A stretch of DNA of 64,000 nt, from the NCBI GenBank assembly GCA_043807085.1, contig JAZDGI010000005.1, forward strand, positions 5,816-69,815. Reading direction: 5' to 3'. Positions 3,269 to 41,145 of the stretch are shown here, piece after piece. The translations under genes were made by a program, and so were the position numbers. The notes under the pieces are model-generated. The model ran no database searches. It was not told where the DNA came from and saw only the letters and a list, made by a program, of their open reading frames with translations. Position 1 is the stretch's first letter; every line of letters begins with the position of its first letter. Source of the stretch: a bacterium (GTDB lineage Bacteria; Patescibacteriota; Minisyncoccia; Minisyncoccales; JAZDGI01).

Positions 3269-4261
3269 ATGCGGCAGTTAAGGTTTTTATTTTTATTTCT
3301 CGCCGCCGCCATTTTAATGGCGGCCTTTGATTTTGTTTTTGTCTTATTCTCTTTGCCGCAAGTCGCAGATGTTTTACCCTTAGACGGAGAGCGGAACGTT
3401 TCAGAGAGAGCTGTGATTACCATACGTTTTAACAAGCCGGTTTCCAGGCAAGAGCTGAAGCATTTAATTTTTCCCGAAACTTACGGCGAGTGGAAATTTA
3501 CAGACCCTTTGATTAAAAATCATTTATTCAAAACATTAACTTTCATTCCGGCAGAAAAATTCAGTCCGGGAACGCAGTTTTTTGTAAGATTAGAAAATAT
3601 CAGAGGGTTCGGACTTGGCGCGGAAAACTTTTTTGCTTTTTCTTTTAGGACTGCGCCGGACAAAGAGGCTCTGGCAAAGAGGGTCACCTTGCTTGAAACC
3701 CCCTTGGATTGGCAAGATCATAAGCTGTCTTGCGAGGCGGCCTCTTTAAAAATGGCGCTTTGCGGGAAAGGGATAAGGGTTTCCGAGGAAGAAATAATGG
3801 CAGAAATAGGCGTTGACACGACCTCCAGGCAGGGAAAGGTCTGGGGGGACCCTTATGAAAAATTTGTCGGGGAGATTGATGGCAGAATTTGTCAAACAGG
3901 CTATGGGGCTTATTGGCCGGCAGTAGCCCGGGCGGCTCTTAAGTGGAGGGAAAGCGAAAGTTTCACGAATTGGAATTTGGAAAATTTAATTAACGAGATT
4001 GAGCAGAAAAATCCAGTTGTCGTTTGGGGGGTACTCCCTGATAAGCCATTGACTGATTGTTCTTGGTATACGAGAGAGGGAAAATATGTAAAAGCTTTTA
4101 GAGAGGCGCACGTCAGATTGCTGATAGGGTTTGTCGGGCCGGCAGATTCCCCTTCTCAAATTATTTTGAACGATCCTTTGGCTGGCCAGCTTTACTGGTC
4201 AACCGCTGACTTTCTTAAGAATTGGAGCGCGTTTAATAACAGCGGAGTGGCGGTCAGGTAG
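3269..4261 (+). CDS. Membrane-anchored protein with an Ig-like domain and a C39-like (YvpB-type) cysteine peptidase domain
   Basis: 330 aa. N-terminal TM helix and a Big_5/SbsA-like segment (RAVITIRFNKPV). The C-terminal half has a candidate Cys nucleophile (KLSCEAASLKMAL) and His (REAHVRLLIGF), as in peptidase_C39_2 proteins. Confidence 0.6.
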   Translation: MRQLRFLFLFLAAAILMAAFDFVFVLFSLPQVADVLPLDGERNVSERAVITIRFNKPVSRQELKHLIFPETYGEWKFTDPLIKNHLFKTLTFIPAEKFSPGTQFFVRLENIRGFGLGAENFFAFSFRTAPDKEALAKRVTLLETPLDWQDHKLSCEAASLKMALCGKGIRVSEEEIMAEIGVDTTSRQGKVWGDPYEKFVGEIDGRICQTGYGAYWPAVARAALKWRESESFTNWNLENLINEIEQKNPVVVWGVLPDKPLTDCSWYTREGKYVKAFREAHVRLLIGFVGPADSPSQIILNDPLAGQLYWSTADFLKNWSAFNNSGVAVR

Positions 4262-10313: not shown

Positions 10314-10732
10314 ATTTTTACTTTTCTTTTTAAGAGTAGGATACCAAATCCTGAGAAAATAGCAACGGCTATGGCTGTGGACAAGACCCAAAAGAATCCC
10401 GAAGGATTAGGCGGTTGTTCTTTTGGCTGTTCTTTGAGTTGTTCTTTCTGCTCTTGCTCGAAAAGTTCGGCAGGCAGAGCTTTTTCAACCCAGGCCAATC
10501 CTTGTTTTTTAATATCCTCAACTCTTAATTTGCTGATGCCTTTTATTCTAACCAGGTCTTCCAAGGAAGAAAACGGCCTTAAAGAAACCAATTCCAGGCC
10601 TCGAGCCTCTCCTATATGGACAATTTTGATTAGATCGCTCAGAGGAGCGGTATTAATGTCTATTTTTTCTGCGGCGAACACTCCGCGCCAGGCAAAGAAG
10701 AGGAGAAGGACCACTCTTGACAAAAGCTTCAT
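10310..10732 (-). CDS. comEA: ComEA-like helix-hairpin-helix DNA-binding protein
   Basis: 140 aa. Signal/TM at the N-terminus, HhH repeats (INTAPLSDLIKIVHIGEARGLELV...LEDLVRIKGISKLRVEDI), C-terminal TM helix. Confidence 0.8.
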   Translation of the reverse strand: MKLLSRVVLLLFFAWRGVFAAEKIDINTAPLSDLIKIVHIGEARGLELVSLRPFSSLEDLVRIKGISKLRVEDIKKQGLAWVEKALPAELFEQEQKEQLKEQPKEQPPNPSGFFWVLSTAIAVAIFSGFGILLLKRKVKI

Positions 10733-10756
10733 AATATATTACAATACGAAAGATAG

Positions 10757-10876
10757 GCCCTAAAACTGGGGGCAGGGAACTTTTCTTAGCCGGATAGCTT
10801 GGCTCAGGCGAAGCTACTCCTCGGAAAAGCTCTAAACTTCTGTTCCAATAACTAAAGTTGCCCCCAGTTTTAGGGC
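10757..10876. other. 120-nt structured element closed by a perfect 18-bp inverted repeat
   Basis: GCCCTAAAACTGGGGGCA at 10757..10774 pairs with TGCCCCCAGTTTTAGGGC at 10859..10876. Nested helices: CTTTTC/GAAAAG, TAGCTT/AAGCTA, GGAAC/GTTCC. It lies 7 nt after the PilB-like stop and 24 nt before the comEA start. Confidence 0.7.
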
Positions 10877-26895: not shown

Positions 26896-26967
26896 GTCCC
26901 CATAGCTTAACGGATAAAGCGCGGCCCTCCGAAGGCCGAAATCGAGGTTCGATTCCCCGTGGGGACA
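26896..26967 (+). tRNA. tRNA-Arg (anticodon CCG)
   Basis: 72-nt cloverleaf. Acceptor GTCCCCA/TGGGGAC, D arm GCTT/AAGC, anticodon arm CGGCC-CTCCGAA-GGCCG, T loop TTCGATT. There is one A-C mismatch in the T stem, and CCA is not encoded. Confidence 0.85.
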
Positions 26968-26968
26968 C

Positions 26969-26997
26969 TTGACACGAGGGGGCGTTGACTCTAAAAT
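26969..26997 (+). promoter_or_regulatory. Consensus sigma70 promoter (TTGACA-17 nt-TAAAAT)
   Basis: TTGACA at 26969..26974, an exact 17-nt spacer, TAAAAT at 26992..26997. It starts 2 nt after the tRNA-Arg 3' end. Confidence 0.7.
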
Positions 26998-27003
26998 TTA
27001 AAG

Positions 27004-27164
27004 TTGAGGGGGGTGCGGGTTTTTGCCCTAAGGACAAACGGTTTTTTAGCGGAGGAGGCTAATAGCAGCTGCCTAGCAATGTCCAACTAGACTTTAGTAA
27101 AGGTCAATTTCGTTGAGGACCGTCCCCCTTCACTAAAAAAGCAGGGCTTTGGCTCTGCTTTTTT
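27004..27164 (+). ncRNA. Unclassified ~160-nt structured RNA (orphan sRNA or riboswitch-like leader)
   Basis: Bounded by the consensus promoter and by an intrinsic terminator (GCAGGGC 27141..27147 / GCTCTGC 27152..27158, with A6 and T6 flanks). A 9-bp closing helix pairs 27005..27013 with 27124..27132. Internal hairpins include 27046..27062, which displays GGAGGAG in its loop. No ORF. Confidence 0.45.
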
Positions 27165-27193
27165 AGTTGCCCAGATTGTGCTAAAATAAATTT

Positions 27194-27778
27194 ATGAAAT
27201 CAGAGAAATACGAAATTGTCGTTTCTGGAGCGGCTCGGTGCAGTCATTGCGCTCAAAACATAGAAGAAATAGCCAAAGAAGTTGGTCGGGAAATCGCTCG
27301 CCGTAAATGCAACCTGGTGACGGGAGCCACTACCGGGATTCCTTATTTTTCGGCTTTGGGGTGCAACGAGGCTGGCGGATTTAACATAGGTTTCTCGCCG
27401 GCAGTTTCCGAATCGGCGCACATCAAAACTTATAAGCTTCCTTTGGAGCCGTTTGATATAATGATTTATACCGGAGCTGATTATACCGGCCGGAATGTTA
27501 TGATGACCAAATCGGCTGACGGCGTTATCATTATCTGCGGCCGCATGGGAACATTGCACGAATTCGTGACTGCTTTTGAGTTGCAAAAGCCAATTGGCGT
27601 CTTGGAAGGCACGGGCGGCACGGCTGATAAAATCAGAACGATTGCCACCGGCCCTTACCGCGGAGTCAACAAAATAATTTACGAAAGGGATCCTAAAAAA
27701 TTAGTGGACAGATTGATTAATCAAATAGAGCAAGAAAAAAAAGCAAATTCCAGCTCCCTGAAAAGGTCGAGAAAATAA
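27194..27778 (+). CDS. SLOG-superfamily (TIGR00725 / LOG-like) nucleotide-binding protein
   Basis: 194 aa. Rossmann-like pattern VVSGAAR...LVTGATTGIPY...GRNVMMTKSADGVIIICGRMGTLHEF. Confidence 0.65.
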   Translation: MKSEKYEIVVSGAARCSHCAQNIEEIAKEVGREIARRKCNLVTGATTGIPYFSALGCNEAGGFNIGFSPAVSESAHIKTYKLPLEPFDIMIYTGADYTGRNVMMTKSADGVIIICGRMGTLHEFVTAFELQKPIGVLEGTGGTADKIRTIATGPYRGVNKIIYERDPKKLVDRLINQIEQEKKANSSSLKRSRK

Positions 27779-27796
27779 TTAAGTCTTATTAATTCT

Positions 27797-28054
27797 ATGC
27801 CAGAAAAAGAGGGCAAATTAATCGGCAAAATCACTCACTATTTTGGCAATATCGGAGTGGCCGTCATTGAGCTTTCATCTGCTTTAAAAATCGGAGAAGA
27901 AATACGGATTGTCGGCGGCGAGACCGATTTTTCTCAAACCGTTGATTCAATGGAGATTGACCGCAAAAAGATTGAAAAAGCCAAGTCCGGCGATTCAGTC
28001 GGCCTAAAAGTCAGCCAAAAAGTCAGGGAAGATTACAAGGTTTACAAGGTCTAA
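27797..28054 (+). CDS. Small beta-barrel protein resembling translation-factor domain 2
   Basis: 85 aa. GKITHYFGNIGVAVIELSSALKIGEEIRIVG...GDSVGLKV resembles EF-Tu domain-2-type barrels. Confidence 0.5.
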   Translation: MPEKEGKLIGKITHYFGNIGVAVIELSSALKIGEEIRIVGGETDFSQTVDSMEIDRKKIEKAKSGDSVGLKVSQKVREDYKVYKV

Positions 28055-28081
28055 AAAATTTTAGAAATTAATTTTCCCGCG

Positions 28082-29329
28082 ATGCGGTTTATCGCTGATT
28101 TTCATATTCACAGCAAATATTCCCGGGCCACTTCAAAGGATATGAATTTGGAATCCCTTGATAAATGGGCTGAAATCAAGGGAATTAAGGTTTTGGGCAC
28201 GGGCGACTTTACTCATCCCGCATGGATTAAAGAACTAAAAGAGAAACTGAAACCCGCTGAAGACGGGCTTTTAAAATTAAGAGCTTCGCGGGGCGAAACG
28301 CGGTTTATTTTAACTTCGGAAATAAGCTGTATCTATTCTAAGGCAGGAAAAACCAGAAAAATTCACATTATTGTTTTCGCTCCCTCTATTGAGGCGGTAG
28401 AAAAAATCAACAGTCGTTTGAATCTGATCGGCAATTTAAAATCTGACGGCCGGCCGATTTTGGGCTTGGACGCCAAAGAGTTGGCAAGGATTGTTTTAGA
28501 CTCCTCGCCCGATTGCTTGGTTGTCCCGGCTCATGCCTGGACCCCATGGTTCGCTGTTTTTGGCTCAAAATCCGGCTTTGATTCGCTTGAGGAATGCTTT
28601 GAGGAATATTCTAAACATATTTACGCGGTGGAAACAGGGCTGTCCAGCGATCCGGCTATGAATTGGCGGATGATCGGCTTAGACAAGGTTGCTTTGATCA
28701 GCAATTCGGACGCTCATTCTCCGTCAAAAATCGGCAGAGAGGCGAATGTTTTTGATACAGAAGTTTCTTACCCGGCGATTATTGAGGCGATAAAGACAAA
28801 AAATCCGCAAAAATTTTTATATACTATTGAGTTTTTTCCCGAAGAAGGCAAATATCATTATGACGGCCACCGGCTTTGCGGTGTCAGTTTGTCTCCTCAA
28901 GAATCCAAAAAATACAATAATATCTGCCCTAATTGCGGGAGACCGCTGACTATCGGCGTTTTAAACCGAGTTGAAAAATTAGCTGACCGGCCGGAGAATT
29001 TCAAGCCGACCAACGCTATTCCTTTTAAAAGTCTTATTCCTTTGTCAGAAATTATCGCCGATTCTTTGGGCGTGGGGCCAACAGCTAAAAAAGTTTTTTC
29101 CGAGTATCGAAGTCTGATTAAAAAATTCGGCAATGAGTTTAATATTTTACTCAACGTTTCCAGAGAAGAGCTGGCTGGAGCGACTTTGCCTGAAATTGCC
29201 GAAGCCGTAATTCGCGTAAGAGAAGGCAGGGTTTCAATTGAGCCGGGGTACGATGGCGTTTATGGAAAAATAAGAATATTTTCCAAAAGCGAAAAAAAAG
29301 CTCCGGTCAGCCAAAAAACCCTATTCTAA
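28082..29329 (+). CDS. Endonuclease Q-like PHP-domain nuclease (TIGR00375 family)
   Basis: 415 aa. N-terminal FIADFHIHSKYSRATS, further His/Asp metal ligands (PAHAWTPW, NSDAHS), zinc-finger segment (CPNCGRPLTIGVLNRV). Confidence 0.8.
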   Translation: MRFIADFHIHSKYSRATSKDMNLESLDKWAEIKGIKVLGTGDFTHPAWIKELKEKLKPAEDGLLKLRASRGETRFILTSEISCIYSKAGKTRKIHIIVFAPSIEAVEKINSRLNLIGNLKSDGRPILGLDAKELARIVLDSSPDCLVVPAHAWTPWFAVFGSKSGFDSLEECFEEYSKHIYAVETGLSSDPAMNWRMIGLDKVALISNSDAHSPSKIGREANVFDTEVSYPAIIEAIKTKNPQKFLYTIEFFPEEGKYHYDGHRLCGVSLSPQESKKYNNICPNCGRPLTIGVLNRVEKLADRPENFKPTNAIPFKSLIPLSEIIADSLGVGPTAKKVFSEYRSLIKKFGNEFNILLNVSREELAGATLPEIAEAVIRVREGRVSIEPGYDGVYGKIRIFSKSEKKAPVSQKTLF

Positions 29330-37250: not shown

Positions 37251-38978
37251 ATGAAGAACCAAGATTTGGCGAAAATATTTTATGGAATAGCGGATTATTT
37301 GGAGATGGATAGGGTGGCTTTTAAGCCCTTTGCCTGGCGAAAAGTTGCCGTTGTTTTGGAGGCAATGAAAGAAGACGTCGGAGAGGTTTACAAAAAAGGA
37401 GGAAGGAAGGCTTTGGAGGAAATTCCGGGGGTTGGGAAAAGCATTGCTGAAAACATAGAAGAATATCTGAAAACAGGCAAGGTCAAATATTATGAAAGAT
37501 TTAAAAAAAGCCTGCCGATAAATTTACCGGAGATGATTGCGGTTGAGGGGTTAGGCCCTAAAAAAGCCAAGGTTCTTTATGAAAGATTGGGAGTGAAAGA
37601 TTTAAAAACATTGGAAAAGGCGGCTAGGGCCCATAAAATCGCTTCTTTATTCGGATTTGGAGAGAAAACTGAAAAGAATATTTTAGAGGGGATTAACTTT
37701 TTGAAAAGAAGCAAGGGGAGATTTTTGCTGGGAGAAATTCTGCCCAAAGCCGGCGAGGTTTTGGAAAAGCTAAGAAGCTTGAAAGAATCGGAAAAGGTGG
37801 ATATGGCCGGTTCTTTGCGGAGAAAGAAAGAAACTATTGGCGATGTTGATTTTCTGGCTATTTCCAGGAAGCCCAAGCCGATAATGGATTTTTTTGTTTC
37901 TTTGCCCGGAGTTGTCAGAGTCTGGGGCAAGGGTTTGACAAAAACGTCGGTAAGAACGGAAGAAGGCTTTGATATGGATATCAGGGTAGTGCCCAAAAGA
38001 AGTTATGGTTCAGCTCTTCAGTATTTTACAGGGTCTGTGGATCATAATATTGCCACGAGAAAAATTGCCATGGACAAGGGACTGAAGCTTTCTGAATACG
38101 GGCTTTTTAAGGGCTCAAAAATGATTGCCGGCGCTAGCGAAGAGGAGATTTATAAAGCTTTGGGCATGGAATGGATTGAGCCGGAAATAAGGGAAAATCA
38201 GGGTGAAATCGCCGTCGCCCAAAACAATCAACTCCCGAAGCTGATTAATTATAAAGATATTAGGGGTGATTTGCACTGCCATTCCGATTGGGCCGGCGGA
38301 AAAAATTCTATTGAAGATCTGTCAGGAGCCGCTCAAAAAATAGGCTATGAATATCTGGGCATAGCCGACCATACAAAGTTTTTGAGGATTGAACACGGGC
38401 TGGATGAAAGAAAATTAGAATTGAGAAATAAGGAAATTGACAAAATAAACGAAAAATTTAAGGTTCAAGGTTCAAGGTTCAAGATATTGAAGGGTTGCGA
38501 GGCGAATATTTTGAACGACGGCTCAATTGATATTAAGGATGATGCCTTGGCGAAGTTAGATTTTGTTATCGCCGGTATTCACTCCTCTTTCAAAATGGCG
38601 AAAGAAAGAATAACAGAAAGAATAATAAGGGCGATGAGAAATCCCAATGTAGATATTATTTCTCATCCGACAGGTCGAATCTTGAAAAAAAGGGATGAAT
38701 ATCAGATTGATTTCAGCAAAATTTTAAGAATCGCCAAGGAAACCGAGACTATTCTGGAGATAAATTCTTATCCTGAAAGATTAGATTTAAACGACCAGAA
38801 TATCAGGCGAGCCAAAGTCGCGGGAGTAAAAATGATTATTAATACCGACGCTCACCGGAAGGATCAGCTGGTACTTATGGAATTGGGCGTTTCCCAGGCC
38901 CGTCGCGGCTGGGCCGAGAAGGAAAACATAATAAATTGCCGGCCATTAGATAAACTATTAAAATTTTTTAAGAAATAA
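37251..38978 (+). CDS. Family X DNA polymerase with C-terminal PHP domain (PolX)
   Basis: The start is set to ATG 37251 (MKNQDLAKIFYGIADYLEM). HhH motifs, catalytic GDVDFL and PHP motifs (GDLHCHSDW, ADHT, NTDAH). The track's TTG at 37212 lies inside repeat copy 2. Confidence 0.92.
   Translation: MKNQDLAKIFYGIADYLEMDRVAFKPFAWRKVAVVLEAMKEDVGEVYKKGGRKALEEIPGVGKSIAENIEEYLKTGKVKYYERFKKSLPINLPEMIAVEGLGPKKAKVLYERLGVKDLKTLEKAARAHKIASLFGFGEKTEKNILEGINFLKRSKGRFLLGEILPKAGEVLEKLRSLKESEKVDMAGSLRRKKETIGDVDFLAISRKPKPIMDFFVSLPGVVRVWGKGLTKTSVRTEEGFDMDIRVVPKRSYGSALQYFTGSVDHNIATRKIAMDKGLKLSEYGLFKGSKMIAGASEEEIYKALGMEWIEPEIRENQGEIAVAQNNQLPKLINYKDIRGDLHCHSDWAGGKNSIEDLSGAAQKIGYEYLGIADHTKFLRIEHGLDERKLELRNKEIDKINEKFKVQGSRFKILKGCEANILNDGSIDIKDDALAKLDFVIAGIHSSFKMAKERITERIIRAMRNPNVDIISHPTGRILKKRDEYQIDFSKILRIAKETETILEINSYPERLDLNDQNIRRAKVAGVKMIINTDAHRKDQLVLMELGVSQARRGWAEKENIINCRPLDKLLKFFKK
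38460..38483 (+). repeat. Heptanucleotide tandem repeat (AAGGTTC x3 + AAG) in frame in PolX
   Basis: Three perfect 7-nt units (21 nt = 7 codons) encode KVQGSRF(K) between PHP motifs. Confidence 0.95.
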
Positions 38979-40775: not shown

Positions 40776-40801
40776 AAATAATTACTAAATAATTATTGCT
40801 G

Positions 40802-41145
40802 TGGAGGTGGTGGGAATTGGACCCACGTCCGAAAAGTTTTTTCAAAATAATTCTACAGGCTTAGTCCGGTTTTAGTAAGTATAGAATTTAAACCGGGCGA
40901 AAGTTCTATGCTTTGAATCCAAATGTTTTTCAATAGTCTTTCTGGATTCAGGAGAGAACTATTTATCTCGCTGATATGACACCTAATTTTGCCTAGCGAG
41001 AATCAGCAAATTAGATGCCGCTTAAGCGTAAACTAAAGCGGGTTTTTGAAATAAGTTGGCACTTATTATTTTTGCCGTTTTTTAAAAGTTCCGGCAACTT
41101 TGCCTGCTTATTTTAATCGGCTCTTCGTCAAGTCCGATCACCCCC
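40802..41145 (-). ncRNA. ssrA: tmRNA (SsrA)
   Basis: 5' GGGGGUGAUCGGACUUGACG... and a 3' tRNA-like end GGACGUGGGUCCAAUUCCCACCACCUCCA. The acceptor stem GGGGGUG/CACCUCC has the G3:U pair. The tag reading frame at 41022..41060 is GCC AAC ... GCT TAA = ANLFQKPALVYA-stop, preceded by AUAAGU (compare E. coli AUAGUC-GCA AAC). Confidence 0.9.

Follow-up and report, generated by a model that had tools for sequence, protein, structure and literature searches.

The window analyzed here, 64 kb of contig JAZDGI010000005.1 from a Patescibacteria metagenome-assembled genome (MAG), contains at positions 26969-27164 what we consider, with moderate confidence, to be a free-standing gene for a non-coding RNA (ncRNA) of ~160 nt whose working form is a homodimer or oligomer acting in trans. 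Two self-complementary octamers, PAL1 and PAL2, flank a pseudoknotted hairpin in this RNA, and their sequences change freely among relatives while their symmetry, innermost pairs included, is kept. Self-complementarity of this kind is pairable only between molecules, which would imply a homodimer or multimer. The RNA belongs to a family that is common in Patescibacteria (Candidate Phyla Radiation, CPR) metagenomes and absent from Rfam 15. A first-pass annotation of the window had read this place as an orphan RNA gene that carries both a promoter and a terminator, and the proposal held. The element recurs, with unchanged promoter geometry, in >130 independent loci. The flagged region is clearly beyond chance, and neither of the two outcomes named earlier as speaking against it, an Rfam match or a lack of conservation in relatives, occurred.

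Fold of the RNA core and its self-complementary octamers

The SLOG (TIGR00725-like) protein encoded downstream was used to fetch 13 different homologous sequences lying upstream of SLOG in reference genomes and metagenome contigs, and a degenerate DNA pattern built from these identified at least 120 metagenome loci. Viral contigs scanned with the same pattern gave no match. A covariance model, R1, found exactly one copy of the RNA per locus in 100 loci. In five Paceibacterota loci, with SLOG proteins 64-67% identical, R1 found no RNA within ~4 kb of SLOG (down to 2.4 kb on the cut-off side in some loci). Homologs of the neighboring proteins were the best 120 matches, all at least 73% identical, and the sampling represents this clade.

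Rfam 15 was searched with the whole window at the gathering threshold, which reported only tRNA and transfer-messenger RNA (tmRNA), and at E ≤ 10 with the window region and two divergent relatives, three diverse representatives that gave terminator-driven noise only and no family match. No model of signal recognition particle (SRP) RNA, 6S RNA, RNase P RNA or a riboswitch matched, in agreement with the first reading for SRP RNA, RNase P RNA and riboswitches. The RNA is not described in the literature we searched on structured RNAs, riboswitches, 6S and SRP RNAs of Patescibacteria, TIGR00725, palindromic homodimers and metatranscriptomes, and no RNA family specific to Patescibacteria was found in that literature or in Rfam 15.

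The core of ~128 nt (27005-27132) is predicted to form two three-way junctions, P1/P2/P3 and P3/P5/P6, which would be locked together by pseudoknot pairing of J2/3 with the P5 loop. A covariation check on relatives, which the first-pass annotation had called for, supported P1, P2, a two-part P3, P5, P6 and the pseudoknot. In a model-based alignment of 100 distinct sequences, the 41 pairs scored were standard pairs in 90.1% of cells, compared to 77.2% after shuffling (0 of 500 shuffles reached the observed value) and 44-53% when partners were slid, and 32 of the 41 changed on both sides.

The 9-bp closing helix drawn in the first reading is present and corresponds to P1. Its GAGGGG/CCCCUC sequence was invariant in all 13 homologs found without use of the RNA sequence, which suggests that the sequence of P1 matters in addition to its pairing. 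All five aligned pairs of P2 changed on both sides, one of them being G-C in 48 sequences and A-U in 47. P3a and P3b were paired in 93.9% and 92.2% of cells, with both-side changes in 8 of 10 pairs, and P5 in 95.7% of cells, with such changes in 4/4 pairs. P6, the further hairpin that had been placed at 27091..27106, is also present; it was paired in 76.9% of cells and is missing in a subclass of the family. The proposed pairing of GGACA with TGTCC turned out to be a covarying pseudoknot, paired in 90.6% of cells, with both-side changes in four of five pairs and variants that include GGAC/GUCC, GGCC/GGCC, GGGC/GCCC, UGAC/GUCA and GCAC/GUGC. It was left out of the covariance model, so its covariation support is independent.

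One proposed element did not survive. A hairpin at 27046-27062 (TTAGC...GCTAA), with GGAGGAG in its loop, can be drawn in the window, but it is not kept in relatives, where its 5′ arm pairs with 27111-27116 to form P3b. Of 38 sequences that have G instead of A at 27048, 31 also have C instead of U at the P3b partner, while the hairpin partner remains U. One pair of the hairpin is an A·C mismatch in 35 of 108 sequences, and otherwise only wobble is tolerated. The hairpin was therefore rejected in favor of P3b. This places the conserved, purine-rich GAAGGAGG in the junction between P3b and P5, as a strand that the covariation-supported structure leaves unpaired, and GGAG is present in 11 of the 13 unbiased homologs.

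PAL1 and PAL2 lie on the two sides of P5. At PAL1, 78 of 108 unique sequences had a perfect Watson-Crick palindrome that was 8 nt or longer, compared to 7% of shuffled segments. With G·U pairs included, full self-complementarity was seen in 78% of sequences at offset 0, whereas none of the twelve neighboring offsets exceeded 10%. Thirty-one different octamers occupy the position, among them GCAGCUGC, GGAUAUCC, GGACGUCC, GCAAUUGC, UGCUAGCA, GGAGCUCC and CGCGCGCG, and 89.5% of cells were paired against 55.2% when partners were shuffled, with none of 1000 shuffles coming near. In the 100-sequence alignment the corresponding value was 89.9%, and 4/4 pairs changed on both sides; PAL1 is not part of the covariance model. 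The innermost pair was G-C in 38 sequences, U-A in 23, C-G in 18 and A-U in 8. Since this innermost pair is impossible within a hairpin, only two molecules can satisfy the pattern. The 8-bp PAL1 duplex alone has a computed energy of -14.5 kcal/mol.

PAL2 behaves similarly. At offset 0, 60% of sequences were fully self-complementary and 75% had at least three of four pairs, while other offsets gave at most 5% full self-complementarity, except for 18% at offset -3, which is taken to be an alignment register shift. Forty-nine different octamers were found, with 80.5% of cells paired compared to 48.4% when partners were shuffled (none of 1000 shuffles near); examples are CGAAUUCG, GAAAUUUC, GGAAUUCC, ACUUAAGU, GUUUAAAC and GCUCGAGC, and GUUUGAAC with G·U pairs. 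A subclass of the family (e.g. L001, L003 and L023) has a clear PAL2 and no stable P6. Because the innermost pairs of the palindromes covary, a mini-hairpin is ruled out, and the alignments thus point, for both PAL1 and PAL2, to what is expected of a self-assembling RNA, namely symmetry maintained by compensatory change that cannot pair within one molecule.

In the mechanism we propose, each palindrome would pair with its copy in a second molecule (PAL1 with PAL1′, PAL2 with PAL2′), so that two 8-bp intermolecular helices would hold together a symmetric homodimer. The two helices would run from the P5 of one protomer to the P3 of the other and so create two four-way junctions. Alternatively, the palindromes could engage different partners and build an open chain or a ring. 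P6 would compete with PAL2, possibly as a toggle between monomer and oligomer in which P6 keeps PAL2 engaged as long as the RNA is monomeric. At least two GAAGGAGG strands, each a perfect Shine-Dalgarno sequence, would be displayed by the assembly for binding by a protein, ligand or ribosome, and the RNA would act in trans as a stable, shape-dependent molecule, neither a leader nor a base-pairing regulator. We would give about an even chance to a more specific form of this idea, an uncatalogued class of Patescibacteria RNA with a ~130-nt core whose native state is an RNA-RNA assembly built through the two independently covarying octamers, a possible multivalent trap of 30S subunits or of a protein that binds GGAG.

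Several observations weigh against this picture. The window PAL2, ACUUUAGU, forms only three of four pairs and has a central U·U, and PAL2 is imperfect in ~25-40% of relatives. It also overlaps the covarying P6, so PAL2 may be relevant to some lineages or states only. RNAcofold favored a dimer in 108/108 sequences, by a median of 10.6 kcal/mol, but the predicted dimers are mostly trivial strand-swapped duplexes, which makes this weak support only. The sequences are mutually related, and shuffle controls therefore overstate significance; the slid and offset controls are fairer. The DNA pattern itself required GAGGGG, GGAGR and CCCCTC, and conservation of these motifs was judged from the 13 SLOG-linked loci only. 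Finally, the RNA has a fixed place upstream of one operon in 110/110 loci, so a cis or operon-specific role may be possible.

If the RNA does work as an assembly, it should be accessible to experiment. The symmetry evidence comes from sequence only and invites cheap, direct native-gel and heterodimer tests, e.g. with the mutants GCACCUGC and GCAGGUGC of PAL1 (GCAGCUGC), and a dimer of ~85 kDa would be of tractable size for cryo-electron microscopy or crystallography. Patescibacteria represent a very large and mostly uncultured bacterial diversity with tiny genomes, and a conserved, strongly promoted and intricately folded RNA in such reduced genomes likely has an important role.

Table 1. Coordinates of the RNA gene, its structural elements and the flanking features, as positions in the window
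Feature	Positions	Strand	Details	Basis
tRNA-Arg(CCG)	26896-26968	+	Upstream neighbor	ARAGORN and Rfam
RNA promoter	26969-26997	+	-35 TTGACA 26969-26974; 17-nt spacer; -10 TAAAAT 26992-26997	
P1, 5′ strand	27005-27013	+	UGAGGGGGG; partner 27124-27132	Fold and covariation alignment
P2 hairpin	27017-27028	+	GGG UUUUUG CCC; 27017-27019/27026-27028	
Pseudoknot, 5′ strand	27032-27036	+	GGACA in J2/3; partner UGUCC 27080-27084 (P5 loop)	
P3, 5′ strand	27039-27051	+	P3a 27039-27042; P3b 27046-27051	
Purine-rich junction strand	27052-27058	+	GAGGAGG; family consensus GAAGGAGG; Shine-Dalgarno-like	
PAL1	27065-27072	+	Self-complementary octamer GCAGCUGC; directly 5′ of P5	Covariation
P5 hairpin	27073-27090	+	CUAG/CUAG; 27073-27076/27087-27090; loop with pseudoknot 3′ strand UGUCC 27080-27084	
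PAL2	27091-27098	+	Octamer ACUUUAGU; directly 3′ of P5; overlaps P6 5′ strand	Covariation
P6 hairpin	27091-27104	+	ACUUU AGUA AAGGU; 27091-27095/27100-27104	Covariation
P3, 3′ strand	27111-27122	+	P3b 27111-27116; P3a 27119-27122	
P1, 3′ strand	27124-27132	+	CCCCCUUCA	Fold and covariation alignment
Intrinsic terminator	27135-27164	+	A6 27135-27140; 7-bp G+C stem 27141-27147/27152-27158; UUUG loop; T6 27159-27164	
SLOG operon promoter	27179-27187	+	Extended -10 TGCTAAAAT; ATG 27194 6 nt on; outside the RNA	

Transcription and genomic neighborhood of the RNA

The RNA promoter begins at the base that follows the upstream tRNA-Arg(CCG) gene. With a score of 11/12 it is the top site between 25 and 30 kb of the window. 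The first-pass annotation ranked it best in the whole window, which was not confirmed: the window contains ~13 perfect TTGACA -35 boxes and, on the minus strand, a 12/12 site (TTGACA-16-TATAAT) at 9242-9215. Conservation of the RNA promoter is unusually high: in 109 of 111 loci the -35 is a perfect TTGACA, separated by 16-18 nt from a TAnnnT -10 that ends 6-8 nt before the GAGGGG of P1. Transcription would therefore start at the foot of P1.

The clean intrinsic terminator that had been read from the sequence is present as well. RNAfold draws it as a 13-bp hairpin in which the A and T runs pair too, and a simple terminator scan missed it for that reason. A hairpin and T-run followed P1 in 77 of 102 loci by a crude automatic test, and among the loci read by eye L003 was the sole one without a separate terminator hairpin. 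In that locus (3960-4003) a U6 run directly follows P1 and the SLOG -10 (TGGTAAAAT) starts 6 nt later; P1 may double there as the stem of the terminator, or one transcript may cover both the RNA and SLOG. The gene in the window thus appears to have what an independent small-RNA gene requires, its own promoter at the 5′ end of the structure and its own terminator.

As first noted, the region folds well and holds no open reading frame (ORF). The 166-nt predicted transcript has a folding energy of -63.3 kcal/mol (z = -3.3 against dinucleotide shuffles, RNAfold), and no plus-strand ORFs of at least 30 aa overlap it. A small ORF behind the GGAGG motif was considered and rejected, since a start codon at a suitable distance is not conserved in relatives.

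In all 110 loci with at least 250 nt of downstream sequence, the RNA lies upstream of and on the same strand as the first downstream gene. That gene was SLOG in 88 loci, where it begins 45-207 nt past the matched RNA pattern, and an EF-Tu-domain-2-like gene in the other 22. The latter encodes a beta-barrel protein (27797-28054 in the window) and was found ≤1.2 kb downstream in 74 of 76 loci. Upstream, a same-strand tRNA-Arg gene lies within 400 nt in 75 of 104 loci (anticodon CCG in 65, CCT in 10), and a radical-SAM gene and a methyltransferase gene are present in most loci. The syntenic block as a whole consists of radical SAM (minus strand), methyltransferase, tRNA-Arg, the RNA, SLOG, the beta-barrel protein, MgtC, an amino-acid permease and an EndoQ-like PHP nuclease. 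Gene order is conserved about as well upstream of the RNA as downstream of it, and position alone is therefore weak evidence of a functional tie; the linkage of RNA and operon is real but by itself insufficient to show such a tie.

The beta-barrel protein is a stand-alone homolog of EF-Tu domain 2, 85-93 aa long, and is conserved beside the RNA and SLOG in relatives (L010-L145). An AAGG[T/C]C[G/A] element precedes its ATG in 61 of 73 distinct loci, mostly 25-45 nt upstream. The window copy, AAAGGTCGA at 27762-27770, falls in the last SLOG codons, 27 nt before the ATG at 27797, and in loci without SLOG the element is transcribed first after the -10. It might be a protein-binding or a translation signal. 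The window copy also resembles an RNA segment, AAAGGTCAA, at 27099-27107.

Alternative explanations

A trans-acting, shape-dependent assembly is the most likely of the explanations considered. The alternative that survives best, a possible one to which we give modest weight, is that the RNA is a ribonucleoprotein partner or decoy of a neighboring protein, either the beta-barrel protein or SLOG, perhaps with autoregulation through AAAGGUCGA in the 5′ region of the protein's own gene. This role is compatible with a dimer. It draws on the close and nearly constant presence of the beta-barrel gene, on the homology of its product to the EF-Tu domain responsible for holding the tRNA aminoacyl end, which makes RNA binding plausible, and on the AAGG[U/C]C[G/A] element at its usual distance before the ATG, whose sequence is similar to that of P6/J6-3 in the window RNA (AAAGGUCAA). 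The P1 sequence, invariant and not covarying in the 13 unbiased loci, also suggests sequence-specific recognition. However, the entire neighborhood is syntenic and the linkage is perhaps merely inherited, and the likeness of mRNA and RNA is good in the window only; among relatives the mRNA element is fixed but its RNA counterpart is variable (consensus RRYCRA). Direct pairing of the RNA with the AAAGGUCGA element of the downstream mRNA was rejected, as it is plausible in the window only (through the P6 5′ strand) and not in relatives.

A cis-acting leader or riboswitch, proposed in the first-pass annotation for the operon at 27194..29329, is unlikely. A ligand-bound core would here decide between termination at 27135-27164 and read-through into the SLOG, beta-barrel, MgtC, transporter and EndoQ genes. 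The layout is suggestive of such a switch: the same operon always follows the RNA, in the same orientation, the downstream genes are consistent, the many conserved junction nucleotides and the pseudoknot are aptamer-like, and the terminator begins 2 nt past P1. A leader, however, is a 5′ untranslated region without an intervening promoter, and this is not what was found. In all 110 loci the interval between the terminator and the first gene contains a -10-like hexamer, mostly TAAAAT or TATAAT and TG-extended in 86. The distance from this -10 to the SLOG start codon is 5-11 nt in 60 of 76 distinct loci, most commonly 6-7 nt. By this spacing, SLOG would therefore have a separate promoter of its own, and its mRNA is probably leaderless or nearly so, while read-through from the RNA promoter would place ~190 nt without a Shine-Dalgarno sequence ahead of SLOG.

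Other features also argue against a switch. The minimum-energy fold accommodates P1 and the terminator together, and no conserved antiterminator was seen by inspection of the loci, for which no systematic search was run. Pairing of the GGAGG strand with pyrimidine-rich terminator arms (CCUCUUU or CUCC) was considered as an antiterminator and set aside, since it occurs in some loci and is absent in the window, L010 and L014. The comparable synteny upstream, with its tRNA-Arg, radical-SAM and methyltransferase genes, weakens the argument from position, and intermolecular pairing would be ill-suited to co-transcriptional control in cis. A textbook riboswitch-like layout can thus mislead, and the annotation of the SLOG operon is corrected to one with its own promoter and a likely leaderless first gene.

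More doubtful again is a Shine-Dalgarno mimic, in which protomers would expose AAGGAGG and a dimer would hold two 30S subunits through their anti-Shine-Dalgarno tails, in a sequestration or hibernation-like pairing. GAAGGAGG is the most conserved unpaired segment of the RNA, and relatives share no start codon suitably spaced after it. Genes in the window use AAGGAGG as a ribosome-binding site, e.g. downstream of the minus-strand promoters 31425-31397 and 55381-55353, and the anti-Shine-Dalgarno sequence is therefore standard. Nevertheless, the motif is degenerate in some members (GGAAG in L002, AGAGG in L021), purine-rich junction strands often make tertiary contacts, so that the likeness is perhaps incidental, and the RNA shows no tie to ribosome genes.

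A divergent SRP/4.5S or 6S RNA that Rfam models fail to recognize is very unlikely: its size, consensus promoter and wide distribution are housekeeping-like and the window has no SRP or 6S match, but none of the three representatives matched at E ≤ 10, the structure is branched and pseudoknotted and not a rod, and the window's only AGCA sits in PAL1, where relatives have unrelated palindromes such as GGAUAUCC and GGACGUCC, with no domain IV motif conserved. An SRP reading of AGG...AGCA was rejected accordingly, the AGCA being part of a freely varying palindrome.

Other features of the window and comparison with known systems

Elsewhere in the window, a compact unit on the minus strand (9242-9085) consists of the 12/12 promoter mentioned above, a hairpin GACCUCAAAGGUC and an intrinsic terminator. 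Within the hairpin lies the window's one other exact copy of AAAGGTCGA, and the unit includes a 14-codon ORF (MIYLEETEEKEEVE); it could be a gene for a small RNA or a micro-protein. Two further consensus promoters, each with non-obvious sequence behind it, lie on the plus strand (38437-38500 and 10717-10790). The first has the heptamer TCAAGGT ~3 times at 38465, the second a G+C-rich stretch (ACGAAAGATAGGCCCTAAAACTGGGGGCAGGG) at 10746. The tmRNA gene is at 40799-41145 on the minus strand (Rfam, 135.6 bits), with the tag peptide ANLFQKPALVYA predicted by ARAGORN. Among the relatives, positions 1-374 of L024 (contig CAZVOX010000001.1) hold an S-adenosylmethionine synthetase gene with an intein and a LAGLIDADG endonuclease domain, according to the listed Pfam families.

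The RNA shares with terminating riboswitches a structured 5′ domain whose junctions are conserved and which has a closing helix and a pseudoknot, with an intrinsic terminator directly behind it and a co-oriented operon downstream. It differs from them in the promoter between terminator and operon, the probably leaderless first mRNA and the intermolecular pairing implied by its palindromes. Like SRP RNA (RF00169) and 6S RNA (RF00013), it is a small, stable-looking RNA with a consensus promoter, and those RNAs are also sometimes found beside tRNA genes. Unlike SRP RNA, it has no covariance model match, no conserved domain IV loops and no GNRA tetraloop; the domain IV arrangement of a GNRA loop with an AGG/AGCA loop is absent because the window AGCA lies in PAL1 and is replaced by GGAUAUCC, GGACGUCC or GCAAUUGC in relatives. 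The suggestion that it might be 6S-like was not borne out either, since it neither matches the 6S model nor forms a ~180-nt rod with a large central bubble. The RNAs of type III toxin-antitoxin systems are tandem repeats before a toxin gene, whereas here one copy per locus was found in 100 loci.

A parallel in organization is the raiA motif RNA, which has its own promoter and terminator and a pseudoknotted multi-junction fold and is fixed upstream of one gene without being its leader. To our knowledge, no self-complementary elements have been reported in raiA. The layout and fold complexity of the window RNA are comparable to those of raiA and similar orphan ncRNAs, which occur in other phyla, have other folds and are not homologous to it.

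Palindromes that form either local hairpins or intermolecular duplexes are a feature of the retroviral dimer-linkage regions, such as the dimerization initiation site (DIS) of human immunodeficiency virus type 1 (HIV-1) and PAL1/PAL2 of Moloney murine leukemia virus (MoMuLV) (reviewed in PMC7357161). The competition of P6 with PAL2 proposed for the window RNA would work likewise. Those elements belong to genomic RNAs of eukaryotic viruses, in contrast to the small cellular RNA described here, and viral contigs had no match to its pattern.

The bacterial OLE, ROOL and GOLLD RNAs are several hundred nucleotides long. Natural RNA homo-oligomers are still rare (PMC12990946); OLE, ROOL and GOLLD are homo-oligomeric, and the group IIC-derived ribozymes HYER1 and HYER5 dimerize via a palindrome (PMC12990946, PMC12286853). 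All of these are bacterial ncRNAs in which identical molecules base-pair into a symmetric assembly, as covariation suggests for the window RNA, and they are the nearest kind known. By Rfam, it has no sequence or model similarity, and hence no homology, to OLE, ROOL, GOLLD or group II/HYER RNAs, and at ~130 nt it is far shorter than OLE, ROOL and GOLLD. It also differs in that two palindromes flank one pseudoknotted hairpin, and we found no description of this palindrome-hairpin-palindrome layout in the literature searched. If it does form a dimer or oligomer, the RNA would be, in principle, a miniature relative of the ROOL and GOLLD assemblies.

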